A stretch of DNA of 64,000 nt, taken from a virus. A model generated the notes under the pieces. It did no database searches, had not been told where the DNA came from, and saw only the letters and a list, made by a program, of their open reading frames with translations. Positions within the stretch are counted from its first letter, which is position 1; each line of letters begins with the position of its first letter. Location: IMG/VR virus record IMGVR_UViG_3300027413_000002; one strand, 5' to 3'. The position numbers were made by a program, and so were the translations under genes. Below, one piece after another: positions 14,038 to 55,693 of the stretch.

Positions 14038-14071
14038 TATTTATAATACATCAAATGAGGTAAAATGTCAA
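14038..14071 (-). promoter_or_regulatory. overlapping sigma70-type (TTGACA-17-TATTAT) and late (TATAAATA) promoters for tmRNA
   Basis: TTGACA 14071-14066, TATTAT 14048-14043, TATAAATA 14045-14038. Confidence 0.7.
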
Positions 14072-15102: not shown

Positions 15103-15108
15103 TTTTAT

Positions 15109-20454: not shown

Positions 20455-20551
20455 AGATGAATGGATCCTTCTCCCGAAGTTCCTTCAAGCGTTTTTTAAA
20501 TGCGCGTTTTGCTCTCCATTCAGCATATTTTGTTTTAATCCATCCAACCAT
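20447..20551 (-). CDS. small basic protein upstream of carbamoyltransferase
   Basis: Hand-translated MVGWIKTKYAEWRAKRAFKKRLKELREKDPFIYD*; overlaps both neighbours. Confidence 0.7.
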   Translation of the reverse strand: MVGWIKTKYAEWRAKRAFKKRLKELREKDPFIYD

Positions 20552-23263: not shown

Positions 23264-23264
23264 A

Positions 23265-24281
23265 CTACATCAACCTATCTTTCCACGTGGTGGGAGTCTT
23301 GTCGTTCACGATTTCTAATTTATAAGCATAATCAAATGCCTTTGGTCCAACCTCTACAATATAGTCGACAGTCTTCTTGACTGCTTCTGGTAACGAGGTT
23401 GATGTTTTATAATCTAACAGCCTTCTTGCCTTTGTACTACTACAGAGAGCAAACTTAACTTCTTGAGGTCTTTTATCTTTGTATATGTATTCGCCTTCAA
23501 ACTTGCATTTTTCAGCAACGAGATCTGCCAACTCATTAATGGTAACAGCCCCTTCATCTGGTCCAATATTTATTACTTCATTCACAACATCATCATCGAG
23601 TGCCATCTTTGTCAGGCAAGAGACGCAATCAGCAACGTATGAGAAACATCGTTTCTGCTCACCGTCTCCATAAATGATCGCAGGTTTACCCTGTAGATTT
23701 CTATTTGCCATAATACTCACAACATTGCGGTATGGGTCATCAAACCTCTGACGCTCACCGATAATGTTATGGGGGACTGCTATGTTATATTCCATTCCAT
23801 GGACATCTGCAAGGCACTTCAACGTATCTTCTGCAGCAACCTTCGCGATACCATAAGGATCGACTGGCATCGGTTTCATATCTTCTTTAAACGGATTTAA
23901 TGTCCCAGATTGTTTACCATACCGAGCCATACTACTACAGAACACAAACCGCTTCACGTTGTTTGCAATACTTGCGCTGATCACTGAAACACTTGCTTCA
24001 TAGATGTTACGAGTAATAAACGATGGGCTGAACACAGAGAATCCCTCGTGCGCAGTTGCAGCACAATGAACAACAATATCAATATCTTCGTGTGACATCA
24101 TGTCACTCATTAAGATCTGATCTCGGCAGTCAGCCTGATAAAATTTTACGTCGCGGTGTAGATTACAGCGGAATCCACCAATAAGATTATCCACCCCGAC
24201 CACATCGTGACCAAGATGAATAAATTTATCAGCTAGATGACTCCCCAGAAATCCTGCTACACCTGTTATAAAAATCTTCAT
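23265..24281 (-). CDS. NAD-dependent nucleotide-sugar epimerase/dehydratase
   Basis: ITGVAGFLGSH, SSMARYG, PYGIAK, GDGEQKRCFSYV. Confidence 0.92.
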   Translation of the reverse strand: MKIFITGVAGFLGSHLADKFIHLGHDVVGVDNLIGGFRCNLHRDVKFYQADCRDQILMSDMMSHEDIDIVVHCAATAHEGFSVFSPSFITRNIYEASVSVISASIANNVKRFVFCSSMARYGKQSGTLNPFKEDMKPMPVDPYGIAKVAAEDTLKCLADVHGMEYNIAVPHNIIGERQRFDDPYRNVVSIMANRNLQGKPAIIYGDGEQKRCFSYVADCVSCLTKMALDDDVVNEVINIGPDEGAVTINELADLVAEKCKFEGEYIYKDKRPQEVKFALCSSTKARRLLDYKTSTSLPEAVKKTVDYIVEVGPKAFDYAYKLEIVNDKTPTTWKDRLM

Positions 24282-25626
24282 ATTCGGGGAATGTCTCCAA
24301 GAAATTTGTTTTACGTCTTCGATCGTGCTCGTTAAACCAATTGTAGAAATCTTTTCGTCCTTCGTTCAATTTTTCTTCACCATAATCACTGGTAGCCATA
24401 TAATCGTGGACTCGTCTGAACTTCTCAAACTCAATCGTCTGGAACATAGTCGGGTCTGCATCATCAACATTTTCTTCAATGAAGTCAAGGCACTCTTTCA
24501 TATAAGGCATGAATTCATCTTTCGGTAGAATGTTCATATCATAATGCAAAGGTTCTTTGAGGTATGGTGTGTCGAATCTGATTGTTCTCATTGACGTGCT
24601 GTCTGGAACGATAATTCCTTCGTATTGTTTACGCCACTCTAGAATCTTAACCAATAAAGATTTGAACGTGGAAACAGTCAATGCATTAAATGTAATCATA
24701 AGATTGATTGGCGTCTTCGCTGTGTTGGCATAATAATGGAAGTTCCTCTCCCATAAATCCAGCTTCAATCCTGTCCTTATATACTCCGCTCTTTCATTCC
24801 AACAGTCAATACTCGTGTACAACGCAAAACTCTTAACAGCATTTTTCTCTCTGATCAGGTTCACATTTGCAGCAAGATTATCAACAAACTTCTCTTTCAC
24901 GCCCAGATTTGTATTTATGTTTAACTCGAGGTGTGGTTGTGGGTTTCGGTGCAATTCCTCGAACAACCTCCATGTAGACTTATGCATCAGAGGTTCGCCA
25001 CCAGTCAACCGCAAGATACTCAGAGTCTTGACAACTTCTGGATACCACTTCCACCATGCTTCAACATATGGGTTTTCGTGTTCTTCATATGCTTTAAACC
25101 AATCAATATCCAATCGGTGATTCTTAACCATATCATATGGTCCAAACTTCTTAATCTCTGACATAAATCGAGAGGAAGAATTAGGATGACAATATCCGCA
25201 TTTAAAGTTACACTCATTGCTGAATGCTAATTCGATGTAATCTGGGTTAACATCAAACTTCCAGTCTGACGCGATGATGTCATTGAGTCTTTCTGGTCTA
25301 TATAGAGATGCGGATCTGATCACGCGGTCAGAGATATAATCCTCACCCATATCCTCGACGTTCCAACAATAATTACACCCAACACACTTCTCTCCATCGA
25401 GCATCTGTTTACGTTCTTCTTTTTTGTGGGGTGTGTTGTGCAATTGACTTGGATTTTCCGCTAGACCTTCCAACGGGATCTTATGTGGTGCTGGGTGATA
25501 GCACGAGTGAGTCATACCAGTCTGCAGATAGATGGTTGTGTGATACCATTTAGCAAAACAAAATGTCGGGCTAACCATATCATCCATTGCATCGCGCAAC
25601 AGCAACGCTTTATCTAAATCACTCAT
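24229..25626 (-). CDS. radical SAM protein with N-terminal twitch-like Cys domain
   Basis: FCFAKW..HSCYH..CNYCW; CNFKCGYC; TGGEPL; NTNL. Confidence 0.9.
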   Translation of the reverse strand: MSDLDKALLLRDAMDDMVSPTFCFAKWYHTTIYLQTGMTHSCYHPAPHKIPLEGLAENPSQLHNTPHKKEERKQMLDGEKCVGCNYCWNVEDMGEDYISDRVIRSASLYRPERLNDIIASDWKFDVNPDYIELAFSNECNFKCGYCHPNSSSRFMSEIKKFGPYDMVKNHRLDIDWFKAYEEHENPYVEAWWKWYPEVVKTLSILRLTGGEPLMHKSTWRLFEELHRNPQPHLELNINTNLGVKEKFVDNLAANVNLIREKNAVKSFALYTSIDCWNERAEYIRTGLKLDLWERNFHYYANTAKTPINLMITFNALTVSTFKSLLVKILEWRKQYEGIIVPDSTSMRTIRFDTPYLKEPLHYDMNILPKDEFMPYMKECLDFIEENVDDADPTMFQTIEFEKFRRVHDYMATSDYGEEKLNEGRKDFYNWFNEHDRRRKTNFLETFPEYEDFYNRCSRISGESSS

Positions 25627-27410: not shown

Positions 27411-27930
27411 ACAGCGAGCGTGGCGAATGATGCGAAAATCAGTAGGCGTCCGAGTTTGGGCATTGAGTGATTTGATTCAAGCATTCGTTCTTGGCGTTGG
27501 GTTTGCTTTGATGTTTTCATTAATATCTGACCTCGCATATGGTGCGCCAATAGAACATAAATTTAAGTCGCCATCATTTAGTGGCATCAATCAGAGTTCT
27601 CACTATTTGACAATTGAAAATCAAGAGACAAGTCGTAAAGATGCTCTGAAGCAAGAAATTGAAGACTTGCAAAAACAACTAGATCGGGATGCAGAGAATA
27701 CAACGCTCGCAAAGTTTATAAGAAATGTAGAGAGTCGGATTTACTCTACACTTTCCAGACAACTGGTTGAAGGTATGTTTGGTGAGAATCCGAGTAATGA
27801 AGGATCCTTCGATATTGAAGGAACAGGGATAACATACGTCAAAGATGGCGATATTGTGGAGTTGACCATAACAGATGAGAACGGTAAAGTTACTGTCATC
27901 ACTATTCCTATTGGGGATTTTGGGATCTAG
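27385..27930 (+). CDS. csgF: curli assembly component CsgF-like
   Basis: Hydrophobic signal, then HKFKSPSFSG...LTIENQE (cf. CsgF FQFRNPNFGG); C-terminal TITDENG..TVITIP; next to csgG; start uncertain. Confidence 0.82.
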   Translation: MKTTRNGSEQRAWRMMRKSVGVRVWALSDLIQAFVLGVGFALMFSLISDLAYGAPIEHKFKSPSFSGINQSSHYLTIENQETSRKDALKQEIEDLQKQLDRDAENTTLAKFIRNVESRIYSTLSRQLVEGMFGENPSNEGSFDIEGTGITYVKDGDIVELTITDENGKVTVITIPIGDFGI

Positions 27931-28696
27931 TATATCTGGATGTACCACGGTTGGCAGCAACTGGGAGATTCCTACAGAAAAAGAAGCAACTGTTCAGGTG
28001 ACATTACTCGAACAGAAACTGATAGATGTACCACCTCCAATAAGAAGACCCTCTGTGGCTTTGTATAGATTCACAGATCAGACGGGACAGAAAAAACAAA
28101 ACGCGAATGGTGGAACATCATTCAGCACTGCGGTTACTCAGGCTCCAGATGTATATCTGATCAGAGCACTGAAGAGAGCGGCTGGCGGTAAGTTCTTCCA
28201 AGTCATTGATCGTTCTATTTTAGATGACCTCACCAAAGAGAGGCAACTGATAAGACAGACAAGGCAGAGTTATAATGGAGAAGGTGCAAAGAAATTACCC
28301 GCGCTTACATTTGCAGGAATGCTTGTAACAGGTGGTATAGTTGGTTATGACCATGCTATGGATTCTGGTGGTGCTGGTGCAAGATATCTCGGTATCGGAA
28401 CTAGCAGAGAATTTAGTCGAGACACAGTGACTATCAATATACGTTTGGTGAGTGTCGCGACAGGGGAGGTATTACTCGAGGTAATATCAAGCAAAACAAT
28501 ACTATCGACTGCTTATGGTGGAGATGTATTTAAATTTATAGAGAAAGGCACTGAACTTGTCGAAATAGAGTCTGGTGTCGCTTCAAATGAGAGCGTATCT
28601 ATTGCCACGCAAAGAGCAATTGAAACAGGTGTTCTGGAAGTCATCGAAAGAGGAAACTCTCTCGGATTCTGGACATACAACGGGAGTAACAAATGA
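27875..28696 (+). CDS. csgG: curli secretion channel lipoprotein CsgG
   Basis: Lipobox ISGC; VALYRFTDQTGQ, FSTAVTQ, LTKERQLIR, GGAGARYLGIG, DTVTINIRLVSVATGEVL. Confidence 0.92.
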   Translation: MRTVKLLSSLFLLGILGSSISGCTTVGSNWEIPTEKEATVQVTLLEQKLIDVPPPIRRPSVALYRFTDQTGQKKQNANGGTSFSTAVTQAPDVYLIRALKRAAGGKFFQVIDRSILDDLTKERQLIRQTRQSYNGEGAKKLPALTFAGMLVTGGIVGYDHAMDSGGAGARYLGIGTSREFSRDTVTINIRLVSVATGEVLLEVISSKTILSTAYGGDVFKFIEKGTELVEIESGVASNESVSIATQRAIETGVLEVIERGNSLGFWTYNGSNK

Positions 28697-29427
28697 ACAC
28701 GTTACAAAAAAGACTATTTGTGATGCTGTTCCTACTAAACGCAGGGACATCGCCTTTGTTGGCTGATAATGCGATCTACATTGATCAAATTGGATCAGGT
28801 GTAGATATTGATATTACTCAAGACGGTAGTGGTAACAAAGTTGGCGGGAGTGCCGACGATGACACTAAAATGATAGTGAGTGGTGACAACATCACCATGA
28901 GCATCGATGCGGTCGGGTCAAGTAATTCCATCATCGGTAACATAGTTGGAGAAGGTAGCACCATCGACTTTGATATAGTCGGTAGCACCAACTCAATTGA
29001 CTTTAATATTGATCCAACAAATACATATGGAGCCACTGATGGCGATTACACGCTGAATATATCTGGCGGTGACAACGACCTTGAATTGAACATCGGCACA
29101 GAAGATGCTGCAAGCAACGGTACATTTGATTGGATTGTTGATGGCGACTTCAACACAGCAACAATTAATATAGATGTTGGCAGCTTTAATAACACTGTTG
29201 ACTGGGTTGGTGATAACAACACCATAACGTATGATGCAGATGGTTATGATGGACACACGTTAAATGTGTTGGGTGATGGTAACTACTGGAACCTGACAGT
29301 CGATCAACAATCAACTCTGCAAGTAGATGAATTGGAGATAGAACTTGATGGTGATGGAACGTCTCATACGCCTGCAACGATTTGCATTAGCCAGTCTGAT
29401 TCTGGTACTGCCACAGGTTGCCAATAG
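28693..29427 (+). CDS. secreted curlin-like beta-solenoid repeat protein
   Basis: Signal peptide; DNAIYIDQIG; ~22-aa repeats with GxxN (QDGSGN, VGSSN, VGSTN, GGDN, DGDFN, VGDNN, GDGN); C-terminal Cys pair. Confidence 0.72.
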   Translation: MNTLQKRLFVMLFLLNAGTSPLLADNAIYIDQIGSGVDIDITQDGSGNKVGGSADDDTKMIVSGDNITMSIDAVGSSNSIIGNIVGEGSTIDFDIVGSTNSIDFNIDPTNTYGATDGDYTLNISGGDNDLELNIGTEDAASNGTFDWIVDGDFNTATINIDVGSFNNTVDWVGDNNTITYDADGYDGHTLNVLGDGNYWNLTVDQQSTLQVDELEIELDGDGTSHTPATICISQSDSGTATGCQ

Positions 29428-30463
29428 TAGTGATGTTGGGCTGGTCGACCGAGCAGTTGGTTGGCGTCAAATTGTCAGAGCAGAAAAAGAATTAGAACCA
29501 GCAAAAGGTTCTGATGTTATATCGAAAGACGATCTTCGCACAGGGGACGGTCGTATGCAAGTGAAGTTTGTAGATGAAAGCAAACTTCGCATGACTGAAC
29601 ACACACGCATTGTGATAGATAATGTTGTATTCGATAAAGACCCTAGTAAGTCAGATCTGGCTATGACCTTTGCCCAAGGGACTGCTCGGTTTATTACAGG
29701 TTCCTTGGGTACAATCGAAAAAGAAAATATCAGACTCAGAACACCAACTGCATCTATCGGTATTCGCGGAACAGACTTTACAGTGACTGTCGATGAGTTC
29801 GGTCGGACTCTAGTCATCCTCCTTCCAGATATGAATGGAATATCATCGGGAGAGATTATTGTTGCAACGATGACAGGAGAAGTCAGACTCAATAAGCCAT
29901 TTGAATCTACAACAACCTCTGTTGGAGAACTACCGCCAACAAACCCAGCAATTTTAGACCTCTCCCTTGACATGCTAAACAATATAATGATTATCAATCC
30001 ACCCACAGAAAGAATGTCTGTTGATGAATTTTACAGTACAACAGAAGCAGATAAAAACATAAACCCACTCGACATTGACTTCTTAGACGAAGCACTCCTA
30101 GAAGACGAGGAACTCGAAAGGGATTATCTTGAATACACCGAACTCGACATAAATTTCCTTGACGTTGATCTCCTAGAGAATCTTCTGGACTCATACTCAG
30201 ATTTAGATGCTGAACTACTCAGAGAAGAACAACAAACAGGAGACGTTGACATAGAAGGTACATCCGAGGGTTTCGATACCGTCACACAGGTTGTAACAAT
30301 AGTCGACGGTGAGAAGGTAAATGTAAGGAGAGAAGTTTCATCTATTGTAAACATATCTGTAGATTCTAGCGCGGAAACAGAAATAGTCATCGAGCAAGAC
30401 GGTAAGATGTTAGATCCAATCGTCATAAACGGAACAACCAACACAATAAATATAACACAATGA
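29345..30463 (+). CDS. FecR-domain periplasmic protein with acidic linker
   Basis: DDLRTGDGRMQVKFVDES, GTARF, RTPTASIGIRGTDF; LDxxFLD-rich linker. Confidence 0.87.
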   Translation: MMVMERLIRLQRFALASLILVLPQVANSSDVGLVDRAVGWRQIVRAEKELEPAKGSDVISKDDLRTGDGRMQVKFVDESKLRMTEHTRIVIDNVVFDKDPSKSDLAMTFAQGTARFITGSLGTIEKENIRLRTPTASIGIRGTDFTVTVDEFGRTLVILLPDMNGISSGEIIVATMTGEVRLNKPFESTTTSVGELPPTNPAILDLSLDMLNNIMIINPPTERMSVDEFYSTTEADKNINPLDIDFLDEALLEDEELERDYLEYTELDINFLDVDLLENLLDSYSDLDAELLREEQQTGDVDIEGTSEGFDTVTQVVTIVDGEKVNVRREVSSIVNISVDSSAETEIVIEQDGKMLDPIVINGTTNTINITQ

Positions 30464-32283
30464 AGATGTGGCATGTCATAATAACTGTCGCGGTGTTAGT
30501 CGCGGTCAGACTCGTAGATCCTTTTCTGTTAGAAAGCTCTCGTTTGAGCTATTTCGATTTCTTGCAGCGAGGACAGGATGTCATCACATCAGAACAAATT
30601 GTCCTAGTTGATATTGATGAGCAGACTCTCGAGAAGTTTGGACAATACCCGATCCCAAGAAGCACGATGGCTGATGAGGTTTATAAACTCGGCAACTCTA
30701 TCATCGCATTCAACATATTGTTCTCAGAACCAGACCGTTTGGGTGGAGACGATGACTTTGGTGATGTATTATTTGAGAAGAATGCTCTCGTAGCCATCGC
30801 TCCTTCACAAAAGACCAACACCGAGTATCGCCCGAAAGGAACTGGATACGCGACATTTGGCGACCGTGGGGCAGAGGAGATACGCCCAGAACTATCGGGG
30901 ATGCTATTTGCCCGACCAGAGATTATGGACGCTGTGGTGGGATATGGAACAATCTCATCAACGCCAGACGCTGATGGAATCACGCGAAGGATACCTCTCC
31001 TCGAGAACTTTGAAGGTAAACTATACCCTGCACTCGCGCTCGATATCCTCAGAGTTGCAGCTGGAGACGTGTCATATCAAATCAAGACTGATGATCTCGG
31101 AATAAGGTTTGTTCGCGTTCCAAAGTTTGATGTGATCAAAACAGATGACATGGGTAACGTGAATATTGCCTTCTGGAACGAGTTTCCAAGAACGTCATTC
31201 ACAAACATATACAACATACCTGAAGGAAGTATCGCGATCGTCGGTGCAACCTTCGAAGGATCCAGTCTAATCTCCACCCCAGTCGGTGCAATGTACCCAC
31301 ATGATGTGCAAGCCAACCTTTTGAAGACTATGATTGATGGGGTGACGATTTCCAGACTGCCAGAGTTTAAAATTTATGAAATCGCGCTGACTATCATCGG
31401 GTCTTTGCTTGTAATCTTCATGCTGAGTAAGATTTCAATCCTGATCAGCGGTGTTGGCTTCGGAATTTTAGTATGTTTTGCAGTTTTTGGTGCAAATTAT
31501 GCCTTTGAGACGCATTTTTTACTGTTCGACCCGATTTTTGGCGTGTTGACGCTGGTTTTAGTGTTTGCACACGGCAGTTTTGTTCAATTTTACACAAACT
31601 TCAAGCAAAAACAGATGATCAAGGGTCAGTTCGGTACATATTTGTCGCCAGATATGGTTGAGATGCTTGCAAACGACCCATCTCTGATGAAACTGGGTGG
31701 CGAGCGCAAAGAAATGACCTTCTTGTTCATGGATATCTGTGGATTCACCCCGATATCTGAGCATTACAAGAACAATAACGATCCTGAAGGTTTGGTCGTA
31801 TTAATTAATGACTATTTGAACCAAATGACCAATATAATTTTGGAAAATGGCGGCACGATCGATAAATACATGGGCGATTGTATCATGGCATTCTGGAATG
31901 CTCCACTACCTTGTGAGAACCATGCCGAGATGGCAGTCAAATCCGCTATCCAAATAGAGAAAAAAACAGATGAACTTAGAAGACGATATTGTGAACAGGG
32001 TCTACCCCCCATCAATGTTGGTACTGGTATCAATACAGGTGATTGCATTGTTGGTAATATGGGCAGTGAGTCACGTTTCGACTATTCTGTCATTGGAGAC
32101 GCAGTTAATCTCGCAGCCAGACTCGAAGCAACAGCTGCAAGAGGAGACTATCTTGATTACAAGACCATCTACTCAAGCAACACAATGGAGCAACTTAAAA
32201 CTACCGCATCGAGATCAATAGGTAAGATTAAGGTGAAAGGTAAAGAAGAAGAAATAGAAATCTACACACCTGAGTATAAATAG
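30460..32283 (+). CDS. CHASE2-domain class III adenylate cyclase
   Basis: IVLVDIDE..L..FGQYP.PR, DADGITRRIPL, three TM helices, FMDICGFT, TIDKYMGDCIMAFWNAP, DYSVIGDAVNLAARLE. Confidence 0.95.
   Translation: MKMWHVIITVAVLVAVRLVDPFLLESSRLSYFDFLQRGQDVITSEQIVLVDIDEQTLEKFGQYPIPRSTMADEVYKLGNSIIAFNILFSEPDRLGGDDDFGDVLFEKNALVAIAPSQKTNTEYRPKGTGYATFGDRGAEEIRPELSGMLFARPEIMDAVVGYGTISSTPDADGITRRIPLLENFEGKLYPALALDILRVAAGDVSYQIKTDDLGIRFVRVPKFDVIKTDDMGNVNIAFWNEFPRTSFTNIYNIPEGSIAIVGATFEGSSLISTPVGAMYPHDVQANLLKTMIDGVTISRLPEFKIYEIALTIIGSLLVIFMLSKISILISGVGFGILVCFAVFGANYAFETHFLLFDPIFGVLTLVLVFAHGSFVQFYTNFKQKQMIKGQFGTYLSPDMVEMLANDPSLMKLGGERKEMTFLFMDICGFTPISEHYKNNNDPEGLVVLINDYLNQMTNIILENGGTIDKYMGDCIMAFWNAPLPCENHAEMAVKSAIQIEKKTDELRRRYCEQGLPPINVGTGINTGDCIVGNMGSESRFDYSVIGDAVNLAARLEATAARGDYLDYKTIYSSNTMEQLKTTASRSIGKIKVKGKEEEIEIYTPEYK
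32275..32282 (+). promoter_or_regulatory. late promoter TATAAATA
   Basis: 5 nt before ATG 32288. Confidence 0.7.
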
Positions 32284-43570: not shown

Positions 43571-43908
43571 TATCCGATCATCCTTTGGTCACCCATGTAG
43601 TGTGGACCAGTCCACGCGACAGAGTACGCTTCAAAGATGTTACCACGAGCGTGGTTTCGAGTAGGAGCAGCCCAACTTGCTGCCTTCAGGATGTCTCCAC
43701 GCTTAAACTTCTTGTCATTGTCGACAGAGACGATGAAACCCCAGACAGAGTTTCCAGTTAGAATTTTGGTATATTTGCGACCCTCTTCAACAGTGACAGA
43801 AGAGTAGAACTGTTCGTTCATCTCTTTCTTGATATCATCGTCAGGAGCCATAAAGCGTGAGTAGTCAGCTTTGATTTTTTGGATCAGTGTTTCGATTTCG
43901 CTATTCAT
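43570..43908 (-). CDS. conserved hypothetical phage protein
   Basis: GRKYTKI, SVWGFI, GDILKAASWAAP..N.ARGNI, WTGP.Y. Confidence 0.75.
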   Translation of the reverse strand: MNSEIETLIQKIKADYSRFMAPDDDIKKEMNEQFYSSVTVEEGRKYTKILTGNSVWGFIVSVDNDKKFKRGDILKAASWAAPTRNHARGNIFEAYSVAWTGPHYMGDQRMIG

Positions 43909-43938
43909 ATTTCTCTCTCTCTTCTCAATTTATACTCT

Positions 43939-44001
43939 ATTATATCGCAGAGAGGACAAAAGTCAACAACTATTTTTGTCTAAGAGAGAGTTTTTTATAA
44001 C
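43939..44001 (-). promoter_or_regulatory. early promoter TTGACT-16-TATAAT plus 44-bp repeat copy 2 (43958-44001)
   Basis: Identical upstream block to 17862-17905; leader nearly identical to 55560-55622. Confidence 0.85.
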
Positions 44002-44019: not shown

Positions 44020-44289
44020 TTACTCGGTTTCACCGCACCAGTTACACTCTTCACCTTTACCGACACCCATTAAGGATGCCTCGGCAGTGCAGTAGTGTTC
44101 CCAAGTGAGATCCTCGCCTTCGCGTCCACGGTCTCTGTTACCATCCGCATTCAACTCAGTCATATCCTGTTGTTTGTGCTTCTGATTCTTATCGCCATAA
44201 ATGGCGTCCCAGTTATCGCTAAATCTTCGTGCGTCAGTTTTTCTTCTGCCGCTTCCCTTACCACCGTGCCAGCTACCCATTACATGCAT
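44020..44289 (-). CDS. hypothetical protein
   Basis: WHGGKGS.RR..NWD.I motif; C-terminal CNWC. Confidence 0.6.
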   Translation of the reverse strand: MHVMGSWHGGKGSGRRKTDARRFSDNWDAIYGDKNQKHKQQDMTELNADGNRDRGREGEDLTWEHYCTAEASLMGVGKGEECNWCGETE

Positions 44290-44828
44290 CCATCTATGAA
44301 TTCGATTATTTTACGAGTGTCTTCAGGTGTAGTGTGCTCAAACGATCGAATGTCTCCGTCATCAAACAGATTAGCACCAAACTCGTTCTTGATGTTTCTT
44401 AGCTTGGTGAACCGAGACTGAATGAATTGCTCGCTCTGGTCACTTCCGCGATCTATATAGCGTTGCTCTCGAATGTCGTCCGAGACAGTCAGTTCAATGA
44501 TAACCAGCTGATGTCCAGCTTGCTTTACTGCGTGGAAGAATGAGGTTGTGGTCAGTCGATCGCCTTCAAACAATACGACATCGGCAGGACTGCCCTGTAG
44601 ATATTCAATGGCTTTGGGTTGAACCGCCATCGAGAGACGATCCGTCCCAGAGAACACTTCACCCTCTTCATACTTACCCATGAGGAATACATTCTTCTTA
44701 GATGAAATGTAACCCTCAACCAGATCGACTGGTTTACAAAGAAACCACTCATCATCCTTCATAAATTCTTTAATGAGAGTCGACTTCCCAGATCCTGGGA
44801 CTCCGACAACTGCTATAACTGTAGACAT
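44280..44828 (-). CDS. P-loop nucleotide/DNA kinase
   Basis: Walker A GVPGSGKST; GTDRLSM; LFEGDRL; context with base-modification genes. Confidence 0.8.
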   Translation of the reverse strand: MSTVIAVVGVPGSGKSTLIKEFMKDDEWFLCKPVDLVEGYISSKKNVFLMGKYEEGEVFSGTDRLSMAVQPKAIEYLQGSPADVVLFEGDRLTTTSFFHAVKQAGHQLVIIELTVSDDIREQRYIDRGSDQSEQFIQSRFTKLRNIKNEFGANLFDDGDIRSFEHTTPEDTRKIIEFIDGCM

Positions 44829-45178
44829 GCTTTGTCCTCGTTGGTTGGTGCATCTTCAAGATCAAGTTCTATTCGAACAAGTTTATCGTATTTTTTAGTT
44901 CCATTTGCTGAAACTCTTTCGCCAGTGTCTGGGTCTGTGACTCGACAATCCCACGCTTCACGGCAGACTCGCCTCACTTCTTCAGTAGAGCCAGTGACAG
45001 GATAAAACGCATTTATTGGGTGCATTTGTTTGGTGATCTCGCAGTATTCCAGTTTGACTTCATCCTTAATATCCAACGCTTGCATCAGAGGATTATCTTT
45101 AGCAAACCGAACTCCGTCCAGAGTCCTGCCATATACAGCATTCGTCTTGTTGCTCCGAGTTTTGGTAGTTTTCGTCAT
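44813..45178 (-). CDS. hypothetical protein in modification operon
   Basis: ATGA overlap with upstream gene. Confidence 0.55.
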   Translation of the reverse strand: MTKTTKTRSNKTNAVYGRTLDGVRFAKDNPLMQALDIKDEVKLEYCEITKQMHPINAFYPVTGSTEEVRRVCREAWDCRVTDPDTGERVSANGTKKYDKLVRIELDLEDAPTNEDKACLQL

Positions 45179-46188
45179 AGTGGTAATACTCCCTCCACTG
45201 ATTGTTCATCATCATACATCATCTCCAACCGATCCAGCTTGCCTGTATTCAGGAATGACGCATACTTCTCTTTGATTATGCCTGTTTTATTTGATAAAGT
45301 CAAGTCCAAAGTTTCGTTTCTTGCTTGCCACAAGACCTCCCACTCGATACCAGACCAGCCATCTTGCTCGACTTTCAGTATCTCTTCAGCTTGTCTGTCC
45401 AGATAATATCCGAGGTATCGACCATGACTGGTGCGGAACAACTTCTTGAATGAACACAGACACGTCTCCATTGAGAAGTAATTGATGTCCTTCGCCAGTT
45501 CAGGATATTCAGAGTGCATTTCACTGATCAGTTCAGTACCCTGCGCTTCGAGATCCGCATACTCTCCAGCTGTCAGTTTGGTATTCACCTTGTCCTCCTG
45601 ACCGAGCGCATACAACCATCCGTTGCGGTGTGATCGAGATCCAGAGTAATCGCTGAACATCAGACTTGTTGGCTCGATCGGGACATCAGCGGTGTGCTTC
45701 AGCTGTTGCATATAGAACCATGTCGAGTAGCGTCCGAACTTATACAGACCATCCTTGAGAGCAGTCCAGAGATTATCGAAGTTCTGCTCTTCATTGTCGC
45801 CATAGTAAGATTCCAGCATCTGTCGTTGTGTACGCTTCTCTGTAAACTTTTCATACGAGGCGAACATATCAGCCAGATGTCCTTTACTCCACTTGGTGTC
45901 GGTCTGGTATCGGAGTCGCTTATAGTTCTCAGTGTTCCACGCATTCATCCGATCGAATGTAGCCAACTCGAAATCGGGGAACTCATTCATCAGAACCCAA
46001 GATGTCGGGAGGTAGTATGTGTTGCCGTACAACCAAGCAAACCAGAGTCGTTGCTCATCGTTATGCTCATACCGTGTATTGATGTAATTGGCGAGCCAGA
46101 TGGCAGGGTCGCAATCATTATATCTGACAGACCACGCATACCATCTCTTGAATGCCTCGCGTCTGTTTTTAGGTTCTCTATAATCCAC
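45175..46188 (-). CDS. amino acid:DNA transferase (aGPT-Pplase2-like, HhH glycosylase fold)
   Basis: DCDP, RLWFAWLYGNTY, KFGRYSTWFY, ETCLCSFKK, RYLGYYLDRQ. Confidence 0.78.
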   Translation of the reverse strand: MDYREPKNRREAFKRWYAWSVRYNDCDPAIWLANYINTRYEHNDEQRLWFAWLYGNTYYLPTSWVLMNEFPDFELATFDRMNAWNTENYKRLRYQTDTKWSKGHLADMFASYEKFTEKRTQRQMLESYYGDNEEQNFDNLWTALKDGLYKFGRYSTWFYMQQLKHTADVPIEPTSLMFSDYSGSRSHRNGWLYALGQEDKVNTKLTAGEYADLEAQGTELISEMHSEYPELAKDINYFSMETCLCSFKKLFRTSHGRYLGYYLDRQAEEILKVEQDGWSGIEWEVLWQARNETLDLTLSNKTGIIKEKYASFLNTGKLDRLEMMYDDEQSVEGVLPL

Positions 46189-46729
46189 GTGCTTCAGTCC
46201 AATAGTCTTTCACGCAACCACCCATGCCCTTTTTAGTGACTTCTTTTTGTGTGTATTCATCCCACTCCCAGACCAGATCACTGACGCTTGGTCCAGCGAT
46301 ACGTCCAATAGAGAGAAACGTGTCTGATGCTTGGATTCCCCAAGACTTGAAACCTACCCGTTCATATGCAGTAAGAGCAGGAGCATTGATTGATACTCGG
46401 AAGTGTTTGAGTTGTGCCATATATGCTCGATACACAGCGTCTTCACATAACTTACGGAACACACCCTTGCCTCTAGCGTCTGGTATTGTGACGATCCACT
46501 TCAGATTGGCGTAGTTCTTCATCATCTTCGTTGCGATGACTCCCAAGACTTTACCATCCTCGTAGAAAGCACGGATGCAGTCTTGACAGTTGTCGTCAAT
46601 GATACCACGTCTCATCTTCGAGAAGAATTTGTCAGTCGTTTTGTTTGCTTCACAAAACTCAGACCAGTCATCAAATGACAGGTTGGAGATCCCGTCCTGA
46701 ACCTGTTGATTCGACTCTGATTGATTCAT
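46178..46729 (-). CDS. GNAT acetyltransferase
   Basis: IVTIPDARGKGVFRKL acetyl-CoA motif; A..AYERVGF. Confidence 0.8.
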   Translation of the reverse strand: MNQSESNQQVQDGISNLSFDDWSEFCEANKTTDKFFSKMRRGIIDDNCQDCIRAFYEDGKVLGVIATKMMKNYANLKWIVTIPDARGKGVFRKLCEDAVYRAYMAQLKHFRVSINAPALTAYERVGFKSWGIQASDTFLSIGRIAGPSVSDLVWEWDEYTQKEVTKKGMGGCVKDYWTEARGL

Positions 46730-47315
46730 TAATGATTCCAGCACGTTTTGCAATATCCTTCGTTGATGTGATAATATAACCGTTGTCCACAGTAGTCTTG
46801 TACAATGGTCGCTTACCATTCCGATACAGGTTGATTTTCTTATCTGATGTAAGTTCTATGACAGATAGAGATGAGTCTCTCCAGATCTCGAGTGGATGAT
46901 ATCCTGCCTCAATCGTTCGATTTAGCAGTTCAGTATCGTTCTGTGTGGTCGTCTCATACCCATACAGCCTATCCCAGTTCTCTGGAAGTTCTTGTGTGAC
47001 CACGCCATTGTGAACGATTGATAGATCGTCACTGGTCTGTATGGGTTGATTGAATCGGAGGTCACTGGTTGAATATCGACAGTGACCAATAAGGTACAGG
47101 TTGCCATCCTCATTGAGCAATTGCTCCATCTTTGAGAGAGGAGAGAAGTCAGGAGCGGGGACAGCTTCAATGAGAGTGGCAACCTTACCGTTCTTTACAT
47201 ACGACAAACCTGTCGCGTGTAACCCTCGAATACGAGATTCAAGGAAAACATTCCGCACCAGTTCCAAGTCAGAAGAACTGGGGGAAGTTAATCGTGCGCC
47301 AATTACTGCGCACAT
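46671..47315 (-). CDS. class II glutamine amidotransferase (Ntn hydrolase), stand-alone
   Basis: N-terminal MCAVIG, RGLHATG, GHCRYST, NQP, VHNG, NDTE, RPL. Confidence 0.88.
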   Translation of the reverse strand: MCAVIGARLTSPSSSDLELVRNVFLESRIRGLHATGLSYVKNGKVATLIEAVPAPDFSPLSKMEQLLNEDGNLYLIGHCRYSTSDLRFNQPIQTSDDLSIVHNGVVTQELPENWDRLYGYETTTQNDTELLNRTIEAGYHPLEIWRDSSLSVIELTSDKKINLYRNGKRPLYKTTVDNGYIITSTKDIAKRAGIINESIRVESTGSGRDLQPVI

Positions 47316-48622
47316 CAGAACAAATCCGCGAGTGATGCCGTGCCAGCAGATGCTTGGGGATGATATTTGTCAAGCATCTCCTGTCCACCATGCTCTTGGA
47401 GGTAATCATACCATTCAGTGGCATCCCACATCTTGGTTGATACACCGTTCCAGAGAGGACGCCACTCGGGATGTTCTTCATTGAGTCGTCTGTAATCAAC
47501 ATACTGACGACGCAAAGTCTCGTAATCAAATGAACCCAACAGAGCCATCTTCTCACGAGCATAGGCGACGATCGAGATACGAATCGGATCGTCACCAATG
47601 ATTTCCGTATTACCGTGAATGCCTTCGTGATTGTTCACGAGCAGGAGATCTCCTGGATGCAACTCAACAGCAATGCGGAACTCAGGTAACACAAACAGAC
47701 AACCATCCCAACCTTTTTTACCATCTGGGGAGATGCAGCTGATATTAGAGAAACCCTCGGTGTAATCACCAGCGTCTCTGTGTGCAGCTGTGCGGAATGT
47801 ACGGTTGACTGTCAGTGTTGTGTATGGTGTATCAGGTACAACATACTTCGGGTCAATCGCGTCCGTAAATGCTTTCTGTTTCGCATATCGCTCGGGGAGT
47901 AACTCCTCGAACTGACGTGCCAGAGTCTGCAGATATGGATACGACTTTGCAAACAGTTCAGGATTCTTTTCGGTGTATGCTGTAGCGCGACCATATGGAA
48001 TCCGAGGATACCGATCGAACCAGCCAGCAATACCAGAATTCACTGTGTTTGCGTAGGAAGTGTCGGAGATATAGTTCTTGACCATATCTTTAGCTGCATC
48101 TTTGCGCTCTGAGGCAGACATAGGACGAACCGAGTCCAACCACCAGTCAAAGAATTCACTATACTCGACACCAGTTTTCTTGATTCGATCTCTGAGCCAA
48201 ACACGACCACGACCTGCCTCATCTGGCTTATGTCGAGCGATCGCATTTTCGATAGCATCAAAGTCTTCATCAAGAGATGAGTCAGGTGCAGTAAATATAG
48301 CGTCCAAGATATCCTCTTGAAGAGGTGTCACCCAGTCTCGCTTACCATTCTGCCCTGCTCGTGGTCCAGCTGCGAGTCCACGATTCTGTGTCTCGATTGC
48401 CGCTGGAGCCAATCCTTCAAATGCACCCTCTTGTTCAGCGGATGAAAACACACCCTTGCGGAACTTGAAGATTACATTGTGTTCACCGTTGCCCTCGTTG
48501 AATCTGTCGAGAGCATACAAATCTGTATCTGCTGTGATGATCTGGTCATAACTGGAATCATCCAGCCACTTACCAAGTTTATCGTCACAGTCTTGCTTTT
48601 CAATCGTTAATTCTTTTACCAT
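47315..48622 (-). CDS. TET/JBP-like 2OG-Fe(II) dioxygenase
   Basis: TTLTVNRTFRTAAHRDAGD (HxD), HEGIHGNT (distal H), RISIVAYARE. Confidence 0.85.
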   Translation of the reverse strand: MVKELTIEKQDCDDKLGKWLDDSSYDQIITADTDLYALDRFNEGNGEHNVIFKFRKGVFSSAEQEGAFEGLAPAAIETQNRGLAAGPRAGQNGKRDWVTPLQEDILDAIFTAPDSSLDEDFDAIENAIARHKPDEAGRGRVWLRDRIKKTGVEYSEFFDWWLDSVRPMSASERKDAAKDMVKNYISDTSYANTVNSGIAGWFDRYPRIPYGRATAYTEKNPELFAKSYPYLQTLARQFEELLPERYAKQKAFTDAIDPKYVVPDTPYTTLTVNRTFRTAAHRDAGDYTEGFSNISCISPDGKKGWDGCLFVLPEFRIAVELHPGDLLLVNNHEGIHGNTEIIGDDPIRISIVAYAREKMALLGSFDYETLRRQYVDYRRLNEEHPEWRPLWNGVSTKMWDATEWYDYLQEHGGQEMLDKYHPQASAGTASLADLF

Positions 48623-48637
48623 AATATATCATCCCGT

Positions 48638-48820
48638 TTAATTTAGTCCGATGAGTCCCCACCCGTGATTGGCTATTGCGTTGAGTATAATAAACCAACA
48701 TGTAGCCATATGAGTAATCCACCACACAGTACGGATAGCAGCAACAGTATTAGCTTGCTTATCTGTCTCGCCAACTTTTTCACCTAGACTTTTTGCCCAT
48801 ATTCTCCACCATTTATACAT
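48638..48820 (-). CDS. small membrane protein
   Basis: WRIWAKSLGEK motif; promoter-like TTGACA-17-TATAAT at 48847-48819 overlaps start. Confidence 0.55.
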   Translation of the reverse strand: MYKWWRIWAKSLGEKVGETDKQANTVAAIRTVWWITHMATCWFIILNAIANHGWGLIGLN

Positions 48821-48843
48821 TATACACCAGTCCCCTGTAAATG

Positions 48844-49230
48844 TCAAGCATTGTTTCTTTTTTCTCTCACATCTTTGACTGCTGCTTTGATCGCATCTTC
48901 TGCTAACACAGAACAATGAATCTTAACTGGGGGTAATGCCAGTTCTTCAGCAATCTGGGTGTTTTTGATCTGCTCGGCATCATCGATGCTTTTACCTTTG
49001 ACCCACTCAGTCAGCAATGAGCTGGAGGCAATAGCTGAACCACAGCCATAGGTTTTAAACTTGGCATCTTCAATAATGCCATCGTCGTTGACCTTGATTT
49101 GTAGACGCATTACATCACCACAGGCTGGTGCACCGACCATACCAGTTCCAACATTTTCTTCTTGTTCATCAAGTTTCCCGACATTGCGTGGATTCTCATA
49201 ATGATCGATTACTTTATCGCTGTATGCCAT
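48844..49230 (-). CDS. iscU: Fe-S cluster scaffold IscU
   Basis: YSDKVIDHYENPRNVG, GAPACGDVM, FKTYGCGSAIASSS, LPPVKIHCSVLAEDAI. Confidence 0.97.
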   Translation of the reverse strand: MAYSDKVIDHYENPRNVGKLDEQEENVGTGMVGAPACGDVMRLQIKVNDDGIIEDAKFKTYGCGSAIASSSLLTEWVKGKSIDDAEQIKNTQIAEELALPPVKIHCSVLAEDAIKAAVKDVREKRNNA

Positions 49231-50005
49231 CTCCCATCGCCTCGCTCAGAAGTTTTTTGTTGCGCACAACCTGATTGTAGTTGTAAGCGTTTCTTAAAAT
49301 AGACAAATCCACTCCTAGTTGACTTGCCGACTTCATAAAGGCACTGGTATCTTTCGGGAAGCAGTGCCCACCAAATCCTCGTTCTTCCGTCACAGTCATA
49401 TGGCTGTCACCAATACGTTCGTCACGGCTGACAAGATCCTTCACGTTATTATAATTTATACCTGCTTCTTCACAGAGATCGTAGATCTGATTGAAGAATG
49501 CAACCTTTGCAGCCAAGAAGCTGTTGACGGTATATTTCATCACTATGAGTTCTTTTGGATCGCGTCTGAACATCTCACAACCCTGCTTCCAGAATAGCGA
49601 TGCCCAGAACAGATCATCACCCCCACCAAAATACATTGACTCTCTGTTATTTATGTCCTCAAGCGCATGCTCTGCTCTCAGGAACTCAGGGCTGAATGTG
49701 ATTTCGTGGTCTGGATAGATCCCTTGGATATAATCCCATCCCTCGAGAGAGATAGTGCTTTTGATCAGGATAGGAATCCCAGCAGGACACTGATCAAGGA
49801 CATTAAACACATTGCTCATATCGCAATGACCATCCTTACTATCAGACATCGGTGTTGACACTGCGATAATCACAGCTTCTGGATTACCGATCTTATTCTT
49901 ATTGTGTGCTGGATCCACAATCGTTATGTCGTGCAACTTATGAACCGACAGAGCCATTTCGTGCGCTCGACCGACAAACCCATATCCAAAAATTGTTATC
50001 TTCAT
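49214..50005 (-). CDS. UDP-glucose/nucleotide-sugar dehydrogenase-like (short form)
   Basis: GYGFVG, IKSTI, FSPEFLR, K...NSFLA.KV.FFN, GFGGHCFPKD. Confidence 0.88.
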   Translation of the reverse strand: MKITIFGYGFVGRAHEMALSVHKLHDITIVDPAHNKNKIGNPEAVIIAVSTPMSDSKDGHCDMSNVFNVLDQCPAGIPILIKSTISLEGWDYIQGIYPDHEITFSPEFLRAEHALEDINNRESMYFGGGDDLFWASLFWKQGCEMFRRDPKELIVMKYTVNSFLAAKVAFFNQIYDLCEEAGINYNNVKDLVSRDERIGDSHMTVTEERGFGGHCFPKDTSAFMKSASQLGVDLSILRNAYNYNQVVRNKKLLSEAMGDGIQR

Positions 50006-50430
50006 TTGTATTGCTCCACGATTATATCATCACATTTGCTGAGGAACTTAATACCATCATCGCTTCGGAGGTGTGGTTTTTCCCAGACTACGCGCATAAT
50101 TCCTGCTTGGTAGATTAGTTTGGCGCAATCCATACAGGGTGCAGTGGTGCAGTATATCGTTGCGTCCATACAATTTTCTGATGACCTTGCGACCTTGGCG
50201 ATGGCATTCGTCTCAGCGTGCAACACTTCTGGTTTAGTGACTGGCATATTACCAAACTCGTCTGTGGTCTCACAGTTATTGTCCCAGCCAGAAGGCATGC
50301 CATTGTAACCGATCGAAATGATTCGGTTGTCCTTCACAATCACAGCACCAACCTGTAATCGTTTAGCGGTCGAGAGTTCCGAGTAAATCCTCGCAACCTT
50401 CATGTGTGCTTTATCCCATTTATTCATCAA
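50002..50430 (-). CDS. cd: dCMP deaminase
   Basis: VGAVIVKD, GYNG, LHAETNAI, PCMDC. Confidence 0.93.
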   Translation of the reverse strand: MMNKWDKAHMKVARIYSELSTAKRLQVGAVIVKDNRIISIGYNGMPSGWDNNCETTDEFGNMPVTKPEVLHAETNAIAKVARSSENCMDATIYCTTAPCMDCAKLIYQAGIMRVVWEKPHLRSDDGIKFLSKCDDIIVEQYK

Positions 50431-51061
50431 ATTCTCCTATCGATCCATAACTCAAAATCATATGGTATCTTGTTTCTTCGCTTGCGTTATACACATAATG
50501 GTCTCGGCAGGTGTCGACATTATATAATTTACCCTGTTCTAGATGATACACTTTCTGATTAGCGACATCTGACGCATCATACATAAAACAATACGGGTTT
50601 GTAACTACAGGATAGTGATACTTTCTAACACCATCTCTATGTAAAACCAATCCAGATTTTGGCTTCAACTCATTCAATGTAACCTTATGGAAGTCCACAC
50701 CAATCTTGTCTACTGCTTCTCTTACCTTTTGTGGAATTTCCTTGTTCCAATATTTGTAGTCGTCATCCATATAATTCAACAGACCTTTAGCATATGCCAC
50801 ATTGGTGAAGTGTTTGGTCATTCCTATCTCAAACACTTCTGGGTCATTGGCGTGTTTACCCGCAAACTCTTGCAATTGCTCTGGTGTCAAACTTATCTTT
50901 GGTGTATTCTCCTGCCAGTAGTTTGACTGCTCTGAGAATCTATTCTTCAGAAATATCTCAGCGCGACTAAACTCTTCAACAAAGGTAGATTGTTCTATTA
51001 TTATACTCAATTCGTCAACGATGTCAAGCACTAAATCTATTTCTTCTACCATATCGATCAT
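50420..51061 (-). CDS. 2OG-Fe(II) hydroxylase (Asp/Asn beta-hydroxylase-like)
   Basis: L.P.SGL..HRD, YHYPVVTN, H.VYN...RYH. Confidence 0.7.
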   Translation of the reverse strand: MIDMVEEIDLVLDIVDELSIIIEQSTFVEEFSRAEIFLKNRFSEQSNYWQENTPKISLTPEQLQEFAGKHANDPEVFEIGMTKHFTNVAYAKGLLNYMDDDYKYWNKEIPQKVREAVDKIGVDFHKVTLNELKPKSGLVLHRDGVRKYHYPVVTNPYCFMYDASDVANQKVYHLEQGKLYNVDTCRDHYVYNASEETRYHMILSYGSIGEFDE

Positions 51062-52377
51062 CTGTCTGCCCAGTCCTCGGCTTTCCAGCCCGAGCCTTTA
51101 TTTTCGTTTGGGTCAAATGGCAGGGGTTCTATTGAATCAAACCACTCAGCTGCCTCTTCGTCTAGAGACCAAATTAAATCTTGGAATTTTACATTCTCAC
51201 AGAAGTTGTCTCGATATAAAGTATAGCCCTTCATCTTTCTGATGATTTCTTCGTTGTCAAAGATGTGTGCCATCTTCTGCTTTTCATCACGATAGATTCG
51301 GAGGATATCCAACCCTCTCTCGAATCCTTCGTTCATATATTTTTTCAGAGATTCCTCCGCATTCGTGACAATGCGGTCGAAAATATGTTGAGGGAATAAT
51401 CTTATGTCCGCGAGACCGTGACCGCCTCCTGGATATTCTAGTGGTTCATTGACATAGATGTGATCATAAAACCTCACATCTTTATCGAAATACAGACGCT
51501 GATACTCCTCCATATTCATAATCATGGCAGAGGTATAGACAGCATTGACTTCGATTTCGAATCCGAGATCGTAATACTCGTTCCAAGTTTCCCAGCATTC
51601 ATCCCACTTCGCGCCATCGCGATTATATTCAAACACATCTCCCACGCCATCCATTGATGTTCTAAGTTCAATGTTTAATGGCTTTATCATCTCGGGAATA
51701 GACTTATTCTTCCACGTGTTGTGAGTGAGGTTGGTGTTATATTGTATTCGGATAGTCTTGACATAATCCGAGTACTCTGGGTCGTCTAGCAACTCAACAA
51801 GTTTGTCAGTAACTTTCCAGTGTACTGGCATCATCATCGGCTCGCCACCAGCCCAGTTTATCTTCTTACATCTTTTTTCCATAATAGATCGGATGATAGA
51901 ATCTGCTTGTGCTTGCTCATATGGTTTGTCCATATTATTTGGCCAATCAAAGCCATACATCTTCTTCTCGAGAGTCGCCCAAGTCGAACTGAGTACTGGT
52001 GTGCAAGTCTGGCATTGTAGATTACAGTGGACTGATTTATGTTCAAAATATTCTGGCTCGACATCCATCGAACCATCCTCGTTCACAAGGGGAATGAGTT
52101 CATCGACATTCCATTCTTGTAGTCCCTCTTGACGCAATGATTCAAGACCGTTGTCCTCCCGATAGTAACACACACCACACATGTCCAGCTTTTCTCCAGC
52201 CAGCATCCTGAGACGAATACTCTTCATCTCCTCGCTGTTCCACCACTCTTCATCAGTACGCTGTTTGTCTTGTGATACTCTGGGTGTTGATGAACAACAG
52301 AGTCTGCGTTCATTGCGCGTCCCTGTGTAGACGTGGTTCATAATATATGGACAGATTACATCAGACATCCCACTCAT
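51058..52377 (-). CDS. radical SAM protein with N-terminal twitch-like domain
   Basis: ICPY..RLCC..CGVCY; CNLQCQTC; AGGEP; NTNL; SMDG. Confidence 0.88.
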   Translation of the reverse strand: MSGMSDVICPYIMNHVYTGTRNERRLCCSSTPRVSQDKQRTDEEWWNSEEMKSIRLRMLAGEKLDMCGVCYYREDNGLESLRQEGLQEWNVDELIPLVNEDGSMDVEPEYFEHKSVHCNLQCQTCTPVLSSTWATLEKKMYGFDWPNNMDKPYEQAQADSIIRSIMEKRCKKINWAGGEPMMMPVHWKVTDKLVELLDDPEYSDYVKTIRIQYNTNLTHNTWKNKSIPEMIKPLNIELRTSMDGVGDVFEYNRDGAKWDECWETWNEYYDLGFEIEVNAVYTSAMIMNMEEYQRLYFDKDVRFYDHIYVNEPLEYPGGGHGLADIRLFPQHIFDRIVTNAEESLKKYMNEGFERGLDILRIYRDEKQKMAHIFDNEEIIRKMKGYTLYRDNFCENVKFQDLIWSLDEEAAEWFDSIEPLPFDPNENKGSGWKAEDWADR

Positions 52378-55562: not shown

Positions 55563-55693
55563 ATTTCTCTCTCTTTTCTCTCAATTTATACTCTATTATA
55601 CCGCAGAGAGGACAGAAGTCAACACTTTTCTTGCTTTTTATACAATATAAATATACTGTAAATACAACAACTTATGAATTATTTGAGGTTATT

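Follow-up and report, generated by a model that had tools for sequence, protein, structure and literature searches.

Results

Gene Content of the Cassette

The DNA considered here, a 64,000-nucleotide window of IMG/VR record IMGVR_UViG_3300027413_000002, carries at positions 44280–48622 of its minus strand a cassette of six coupled open reading frames (ORFs) that may direct hypermodification of thymidine in phage DNA. Five of the six match Pfam families above curated cut-offs. In the order of transcription, the cassette encodes a TET/JBP (5mYOX) Fe(II)/2-oxoglutarate dioxygenase of 435 residues (TET; 47315–48622; Tet_JBP PF12851, E 1.4e-18), a stand-alone class II, or N-terminal nucleophile (Ntn), glutamine amidotransferase of 214 residues (GATase; 46671–47315; GATase_6, E 3.3e-9), a GNAT N-acyltransferase (46178–46729; Acetyltransf_7, 1.8e-7; Acetyltransf_1, 2.9e-7), an amino acid:DNA transferase of 337 residues with a GTG start (AADT, aGPT-Pplase clade 2; 45175–46188; PF18724, E 2.2e-18), an orphan ORF of 121 residues (44813–45178) with no Pfam or PHROGs family, and a P-loop kinase of the 5-hydroxymethyluracil (5hmU) DNA kinase type (182 residues; 44280–44828; PF18751 Ploopntkinase3, E 9.2e-16). 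Neighboring genes overlap or abut, with TGATG at the TET/GATase junction, ATGA at the AADT/orphan junction, and overlaps of 11–59 nucleotides at the others.

A preliminary description of this DNA, made from the letters alone, had proposed five enzymes and one family-less ORF in a single overlapping operon. Pfam places all five enzymes where that description had put them, and their identities stand, but one gene boundary does not: the GNAT start is most likely 46729, which gives a protein of 183 residues, rather than 46819, because gene callers place the start at 46729 in contigs that are 93% identical. By gene content (gp5, gp32, PhoH, RNase H, and NrdB), the window is assigned to a T4-like myovirus, and marine metagenomes are the source of its relatives.

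Family Assignments and Catalytic Residues

TET scores 67.1 bits against PF12851 (cut-off 34.9), which bears out the earlier family call, and its iron triad (H281-x-D283 and H336) and 2-oxoglutarate-binding arginine (R348) are conserved in 25–32 aligned homologues. An AlphaFold2 (AF2) model with a predicted local distance difference test score (pLDDT) of 92.7 aligns over residues 1–373 to TET2 (9hxv_A) with a Z score of 21.1 and a root mean square deviation of 3.3 over 258 residues. Further fold matches are CMD1 (Z 18.5), CcTet (17.9), and NgTET1 (17.1), with generic 2-oxoglutarate oxygenases at 13.6 or below. A ParB fused to the N terminus was considered for the 215 residues that precede the Pfam match and was rejected; these residues are part of the TET fold because residues 1–373 superpose on TET2, CMD1, and NgTET1.

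The AADT matches PF18724 with 67.3 bits (cut-off 26.2) and phrog_3271 at 4e-54, in keeping with the preliminary assignment of the gene at 45175–46188. It shares ~30% identity with the Ackermannviridae clade 2 transferases, and its residues E241 and C245 are invariant in eight sequences that include the Ackermannviridae, Cr30, and Glutamicibacter phage enzymes. Mutation of the Cys or the Glu kills the M6 gp51 and ViI gp247 transferases (PMC8989533), and E241 and C245 correspond to these essential residues of the characterized enzymes. The kinase scores 58.4 bits against PF18751 (cut-off 27) and has an intact Walker A motif, GVPGSGKST, at residues 9–17.

The GATase scores 37.3 bits against GATase_6 (cut-off 27). 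The protein begins Met-Cys, and all 20 homologues compared (55–84% identity) keep residues C2, R80, N103, G104, and D127, along with the blocks HCRYSTSD, VHNGV, and Asn-Asp-x-Glu and a C-terminal DLQ. We take these residues to have the catalytic and glutamine-site roles of their counterparts in PurF and GlmS. No synthase domain is fused in cis to the 214-residue protein, in which Pfam detects the glutaminase domain alone. A word-limited search for longer forms returned only three metagenomic proteins (P0279, P0280, and P0281; 438–527 residues), none of them a fusion of GATase and AADT. P0279 and P0281 are GATase-GNAT fusions, which may be real or may be frameshift artifacts of two overlapping genes, and one of the three longer forms has an unassigned C-terminal part. 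The 183-residue form of the GNAT scores 31.9 bits against Acetyltransf_7 (cut-off 27) and 31.2 bits against Acetyltransf_1 (cut-off 20.7). Among the operon ORFs, no match to an FAD oxidoreductase family was found with Pfam.

Recurrence of the Cassette in Related Viruses

The GATase family comprises 2070 homologue clusters at E ≤ 1e-3, and at least 563 IMG/VR stretches encode a member of it. The 80 best of these loci were compared; a few of them are the same contigs fetched again, and the sample is skewed to close relatives. Of the 80 loci, 78 have TET with GATase directly after it, and every one of the 69 loci that reach AADT has the order TET-GATase-[variable]-AADT-kinase. With 69/69 loci in this order, the arrangement goes far beyond what chance would produce, and the synteny with other phages that the preliminary description depended on is borne out. 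Every complete relative has the kinase as its final core gene, and distant members (GATase 55–60% identical) carry the same cassette beside gp41, UvsX, and gp43.

The slot between GATase and AADT is where the relatives differ. It holds a GNAT in 31 of the 69 loci, an amidoligase plus a GNAT in 30, and an amidoligase plus a low-molecular-weight (LMW) phosphatase in 8; in one contig, AADT directly follows GATase with no gene between. The GNATs themselves are divergent, with 27% identity between those of the window and locus L006, and several in relatives fall below the Pfam thresholds. This variation implies at least three different end products on one conserved core across the relatives. Where Amidoligase_2 replaces or adds to the GNAT, an LMW phosphotyrosine-phosphatase-like gene and a 225-residue protein are sometimes present (L011 6638–8752; L005 6608–8222; L024–L102).

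Among cultured phages, a blastn search with the operon returned no nucleotide relatives, and only TET has relatives there at the protein level (DLP_6, C48C1, Cr30, and S-CBWM1). The neighborhoods of these TET genes differ from the cassette: they feature TAGT-type glycosyltransferases and UDP-galactopyranose mutase, and Cr30 has an AADT without a GATase.

A Predicted Complex of GATase and AADT

The tailoring genes differ from locus to locus and the GATase does not, which suggests that the GATase works with one of the core enzymes. Complex prediction from unpaired alignments (21 AADT and 20 GATase sequences) was carried out in three runs with three controls. The predicted AADT–GATase complex has an ipSAE interface score of 0.91 in 3/3 runs, whereas the controls score 0.00–0.04; contact agreement is at least 93%, and the partner pLDDT is at least 89. 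In calibration, 58 of 80 solved complexes attained this ipSAE mark, compared with 2 of 110 mismatched pairs. A search of the PDB returned no useful sequence relatives of GATase, TET, or AADT, and recall of a solved complex is an unlikely source of the score because neither AADT nor GATase has such a relative.

The predicted contacts on the GATase are residue 1, residues 28–33, the YST of the RYSTSD loop, residues 104–110 with the NG oxyanion hole, residues 167–170 and 184–187, and the DLQ tail, which in the model would jointly make up the glutaminase active-site face. On the AADT, the predicted contacts are residues 38–46, 67–80, and 279–285; residues 39–45 make up a YEHNDEQ block. Among GATase-linked AADTs, this interface is 88–96% identical, compared with 63–84% for the remaining protein, whereas in the GATase-less phages (Cr30, an Ackermannviridae phage, and a Glutamicibacter phage), it is 23–27% identical, compared with 28–29% for the remaining protein. 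The interface columns of the GATase are likewise conserved above the remainder (0.85 versus 0.66).

From this model, the GATase is predicted to be the ammonia-donating subunit of AADT. Two roles had been offered for it in the preliminary description. The feeding of ammonia to the transferase is favored by the complex score (0.91 versus 0.04) and by conservation specific to the interface, whereas the trimming of a transferred amino acid is disfavored.

A Sliding-clamp-like Tail on TET

The C terminus of the window's TET, ASLADLF, resembles the sliding-clamp-binding tail of gp43 and is the sole such end among the window's 181 ORFs. In 77 of 78 related loci, TET ends in (S/T)LE(D/E)(F/L/M)F, to which a terminal G or A may be added. 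This tail is almost identical to the C terminus of the DNA polymerase from the same contig: in L012, the DNA polymerase ends SSLEDFFG and TET ends QSLEEFFG, and in L014, the corresponding ends are ANLEEFFG and STLDSFFG. The AADTs of many relatives end in GLExF/W, and some GNATs end in PSLEEFL. A clamp-like tail was never found on GATase, kinase, or gp41 in the related loci, and in the window, a clear tail is present on TET only.

It is a reasonable idea that the DNA-acting enzymes of the cassette are tethered to the gp45 sliding clamp via these tails. More tentatively, the tail sequences raise the possibility, which we think is less probable than its negation, that in T4-like phages gp45, and not ParB, is the factor that tracks along DNA and activates the thymine dioxygenase, which would couple hypermodification to clamps left on newly replicated DNA. 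If true, the substitution of gp45 for ParB would account for the inactivity of ParB-less clade C1 enzymes in Escherichia coli, and it would make the GATase–AADT pair a clamp-borne, glutamine-using DNA amidotransferase.

Thymine as the Likely Substrate of TET

ThyX, ThyA, C5 methyltransferase, and ParB were looked for in related viral contigs and among ~50 of the window's ORFs. A related contig that is 86% complete, with a TET that is 83% identical, encodes ThyX. Neither a ThyA-fold enzyme nor a C5 DNA methyltransferase was found in this contig or among the ~50 scanned window ORFs, and the search for a dUMP hydroxymethylase or a C5 methyltransferase, which the preliminary description had proposed, thus came back empty on both counts within that range. 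The window also encodes a dCMP deaminase. The phage most likely makes ordinary dTTP, and TET would oxidize thymine in DNA, because the relative has ThyX and lacks a ThyA-fold enzyme and a C5 methyltransferase. The earlier suggestion that TET generates the hydroxymethyl base after replication gains support from the same ThyX-encoding relative, in which no ThyA-fold hydroxymethylase was found. This substrate assignment agrees with that of O'Toole et al., who put TETs linked to GATase, kinase, and AADT among the T-dioxygenases (PMC13229309).

A scan of four related contigs, among them the 86%-complete one, gave no match to ParB_N (PF02195) at E ≤ 0.1, and no ParB family member was found among the ~50 scanned window ORFs; some ParBs are detectable by structure comparison only (PMC13229309).

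Transcription Unit, Accessory ORFs, and Genomic Surroundings

A predicted sigma-70-type (T4 early-like) promoter lies at 48819–48847 on the minus strand, where TTGACA-17-TATAAT gives 12/12 consensus matches. This putative promoter, a consensus match only, lies ~200 nucleotides 5′ of the TET start and directly past the NifU stop. The first gene after it is an ORF of 60 residues on the same strand (48638–48820), with a hydrophobic C-terminal half and no Pfam family. This ORF is kept directly upstream of TET in the close relatives L004–L010 and L019 (69–98% identity); distant cassettes do not have it, and there the gp41 helicase precedes TET. At the other end of the cassette, a minus-strand ORF of 89 residues (44020–44289) with no Pfam family overlaps the kinase stop and has counterparts that are 36–57% identical 3′ of the kinase in L004–L008. 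The next promoter-like site past the 89-residue ORF is at 43966–43939. The transcription unit, as judged from these signals, probably spans 48847–44020 and takes in both the 60- and the 89-residue ORFs.

The 121-residue orphan has only five homologue clusters, all between AADT and kinase in closely related marine cassettes. It has a basic N terminus and three invariant cysteines (46, 72, and 78); its AF2 model (pLDDT 47.6) is unusable for a fold search, no similarity to the same-slot ORFs of L012 or L005 was found, and the ESM Atlas result was not above chance. Other relatives have no gene between AADT and kinase, or have a TnsA-like endonuclease or small ORFs of no relation there. The distribution of the orphan marks it as a putative lineage-specific accessory and not a core step. 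The TnsA-like endonuclease occupies the slot in close relatives (L004 3589–3966; L005 9235–9615), which suggests that the slot is a hotspot where mobile or accessory genes gather.

Directly upstream of the cassette, at 48844–52377, are genes for the Fe-S scaffold NifU, a shortened UDP-glucose dehydrogenase-like protein of 263 residues, the dCMP deaminase, an Asp/Arg-hydroxylase-like 2-oxoglutarate oxygenase, and a radical SAM protein of 439 residues. The genes from NifU to the radical SAM protein stay beside the cassette in close relatives only. NifU, the 439-residue radical SAM protein, and the Asp/Arg-hydroxylase-like and UDP-glucose dehydrogenase-like proteins were weighed as core members and rejected, as distant cassettes adjoin gp41, UvsX, and gp43 without them; all five genes of this upstream stretch are probably separate auxiliary genes.

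Two direct repeats of 62 nucleotides, at 43907–43968 and 55563–55624, are 89% identical and separated by 11.66 kb. Both contain, on the minus strand, a promoter-like TTGACT/TATAAT site with a TATAAAT late-box-like element after it. The repeats flank an island that holds the cassette, NifU, the radical SAM protein, the dCMP deaminase, and other genes. Elsewhere in the window, genes for CsgG, a protein with a FecR domain, and a CHASE2-adenylate/guanylate cyclase form a plus-strand block at 27875–32283. At 14068–16152, two radical SAM genes lie side by side, one of which has a SPASM domain, and a block at 19018–25626 includes a carbamoyltransferase, an NAD-dependent epimerase/dehydratase, and a further radical SAM protein.

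Discussion

The reading that we favor is that the cassette, expressed as one early transcription unit, directs post-replicative hypermodification of thymidine and that its central step is carried out by a glutamine-dependent two-subunit DNA amidotransferase, which would produce a 5-aminomethyl-deoxyuridine (5-aminomethyl-dU) that is then capped by the GNAT. We judge the case for this reading, which leans on structure prediction, to be evenly balanced. A two-subunit enzyme of this kind is the most economical reading because the methylene intermediate formed by AADTs takes exogenous nucleophiles (PMC8989533).

In the pathway that we propose, TET would hydroxylate thymine in duplex phage DNA to 5hmU, as its family and gene context suggest, while probably held on the gp45 sliding clamp through its C-terminal tail. 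The P-loop kinase, going by its family, would phosphorylate 5hmU to 5-phosphomethyl-dU. The Cys245/Glu241 pair of AADT would then eliminate phosphate to give an exocyclic C5 methylene, and the docked GATase would hydrolyze glutamine via Cys1 and supply ammonia as the nucleophile, yielding 5-aminomethyl-dU directly; for both parts of this step, the support is in silico. Finally, the GNAT would acylate the primary amine. With acetyl-CoA as the simplest donor, the product would be 5-acetylaminomethyl-dU, which is the base of phage PaMx11, reached here without a detour through glycine and an FAD lyase. A primary amine as the core product fits with the tailoring enzymes, as GNAT and amidoligase both act on an amine or carboxylate. 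The modification presumably shields phage DNA from host nucleases.

The PaMx11 pathway to 5-acetylaminomethyl-dU consists of a glycine:DNA transferase (gp46), an FAD lyase (gp47), an acetyltransferase (gp48), and a 5hmU DNA kinase (gp49) (PMC8989533). A kinase, a clade 2 AADT with essential Cys and Glu residues, and a GNAT are common to both systems, and the predicted end product is the same. However, the operon described here has a class II GATase and no match to an FAD-dependent lyase, and in our proposal the glutamine amide is the source of the nitrogen, whereas it comes from glycine in PaMx11. The origin of 5hmU differs as well: TET would make it in DNA, whereas PaMx11 incorporates hydroxymethyl-dUTP.

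The proposed amidotransferase also has features of two-subunit (MurT-GatD) and class II (PurF and GlmS) amidotransferases, namely an N-terminal catalytic Cys, glutamine-site motifs, and a predicted active-site face at the acceptor interface. In contrast to these enzymes, the proposed one would act on a base within a DNA polymer as its acceptor, and its AADT partner has no solved relative. Known class II enzymes carry the synthase domain in cis, whereas here it would be encoded by a separate gene. The nearest GATase relatives in cultured phages, at ~29% identity, are found in LUZ24/PaP3-like Pseudomonas phages as part of sets of GATase, amidoligase, ATP-grasp, and GGCT genes. The LUZ24 protein, gp19, has 510 residues; annotation of the 10 kb around its gene lists RimK-like and UPF0131 genes but neither a TET nor an AADT nor a kinase. 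This gene set is probably a different system.

Several points weigh against the two-subunit amidotransferase and the steps on either side of it. The complex rests on a model confidence score obtained from unpaired alignments, and the AADT catalytic residues 241–245 lie outside the listed interface. The characterized AADTs all take amino acids or putrescine and none takes ammonia (PMC8989533), and the nearest characterized relatives of the window's AADT (~30% identity) are serine transferases. The rare GATase-GNAT fusions (P0279 and P0281) and the frequent adjacency of GATase and amidoligase could hint at other partners. The acyl donor of the GNAT is open to doubt as well, as Mom, a GNAT of phage Mu, modifies DNA with Gly-tRNA as its donor (PMC13219725). 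As for the first step, some clade C1 TETs without ParB are inactive in E. coli (PMC13229309, PMC8256090).

The substrate range of characterized AADTs lends itself to a different chemistry, in which AADT transfers a free amino acid, such as Ser, Gly, Gln, or Glu, onto 5-phosphomethyl-dU, the GATase trims or deamidates the product as an EgtC/YafJ-like Ntn amidohydrolase, and the GNAT acetylates the α-amine. Stand-alone class II GATase folds that work as hydrolases do exist. Amino acids or putrescine are the substrates of every AADT characterized to date (PMC8989533), and the closest of these enzymes belong to the ViI-type serine-transferase group. On the other hand, the predicted complex buries the active-site face of the GATase on AADT, where it would not be open to DNA, the complete set of glutamine-binding motifs is invariant, and the AADT surface that touches the GATase is conserved in GATase-linked AADTs only, for which an obligate two-subunit enzyme is a better fit. 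We consider amino acid transfer the main alternative, though a rather unlikely one. It is also conceivable that amination proceeds as in our favored pathway and that the GNAT adds an aminoacyl group from aminoacyl-tRNA, or another acyl group, so that the final base is a larger amide. Mom provides the precedent of a phage GNAT that uses Gly-tRNA to modify DNA (PMC13219725), the GNAT slot is highly divergent, and half of the relatives add an amidoligase, which makes amide-extended products plausible. The window's GNAT, however, is a single small domain that scores above the cut-offs of acetyl-CoA-type Pfam families, and PaMx11 gp48 is a precedent for the acetylation of 5-aminomethyl-dU (PMC8989533), and we regard a larger amide as unlikely.

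A third alternative concerns the base itself. TET could oxidize 5-methylcytosine (5mC) to 5-hydroxymethylcytosine (5hmC), from which kinase, transferase, and GATase would build a hypermodified cytosine. Clades A and B of the phage TETs consist of 5mC dioxygenases, Burke et al. considered it possible that the kinase acts on 5hmC (PMC8256090), and certain T-dioxygenases oxidize 5mC too (PMC13229309). We find this route very improbable, given that neither the 86%-complete relative nor the ~50 scanned window ORFs yielded a C5 methyltransferase, that the kinase and AADT families are characterized on 5hmU only, and that O'Toole et al. class the TETs of this gene set as T-dioxygenases.

The preliminary description overstated the novelty of the pathway, as the combination of TET_JBP, kinase, AADT, and amidotransferase is already in print (PMC8989533 Fig. 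2 sequences 22–25; PMC13229309). Lee et al. (2021) reported contigs that join Tet/JBP to kinase and transferase, with amidotransferases and amidoligases of unassigned function adjacent (PMC8989533), and O'Toole et al. (2026) described a phage T-dioxygenase clade consistently associated with GATases, P-loop kinases, and AADTs (PMC13229309). These metavirome 5mYOX clade C1 clusters have the same TET_JBP in place of a dUMP hydroxymethylase, along with kinase, AADT, and GATase; they likewise have no adjacent C5 methyltransferase, and post-replicative 5hmU is predicted or shown for them. The cassette is not new but belongs to this published, abundant kind, and neither the GATase–AADT idea nor the clamp tail is peculiar to this window. 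Two differences from the published accounts can be drawn. The papers tie the set of GATase, kinase, and AADT to a ParB-dependent subclass, whereas here no match to ParB_N was found in the scanned window ORFs or in four related contigs, and TET has a gp43-like tail. The papers also give the GATase no role and the final base no name, whereas we propose both here.

Overall, this analysis converts a published, so far unexplained grouping of genes into a defined hypothesis about two proteins whose predicted interface residues are named. Hypermodifications of phage DNA weaken restriction and CRISPR defenses and are a source of DNA-labeling enzymes, and with at least 563 IMG/VR stretches and ~2000 GATase clusters, the cassette is among the commonest uncharacterized thymidine-modification sets in environmental T4-like phages. 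If the hypothesis is true, no amidotransferase before the GATase–AADT pair would have been shown to have a DNA base for its acceptor, and the pair would provide a one-step route to 5-aminomethyl-dU.

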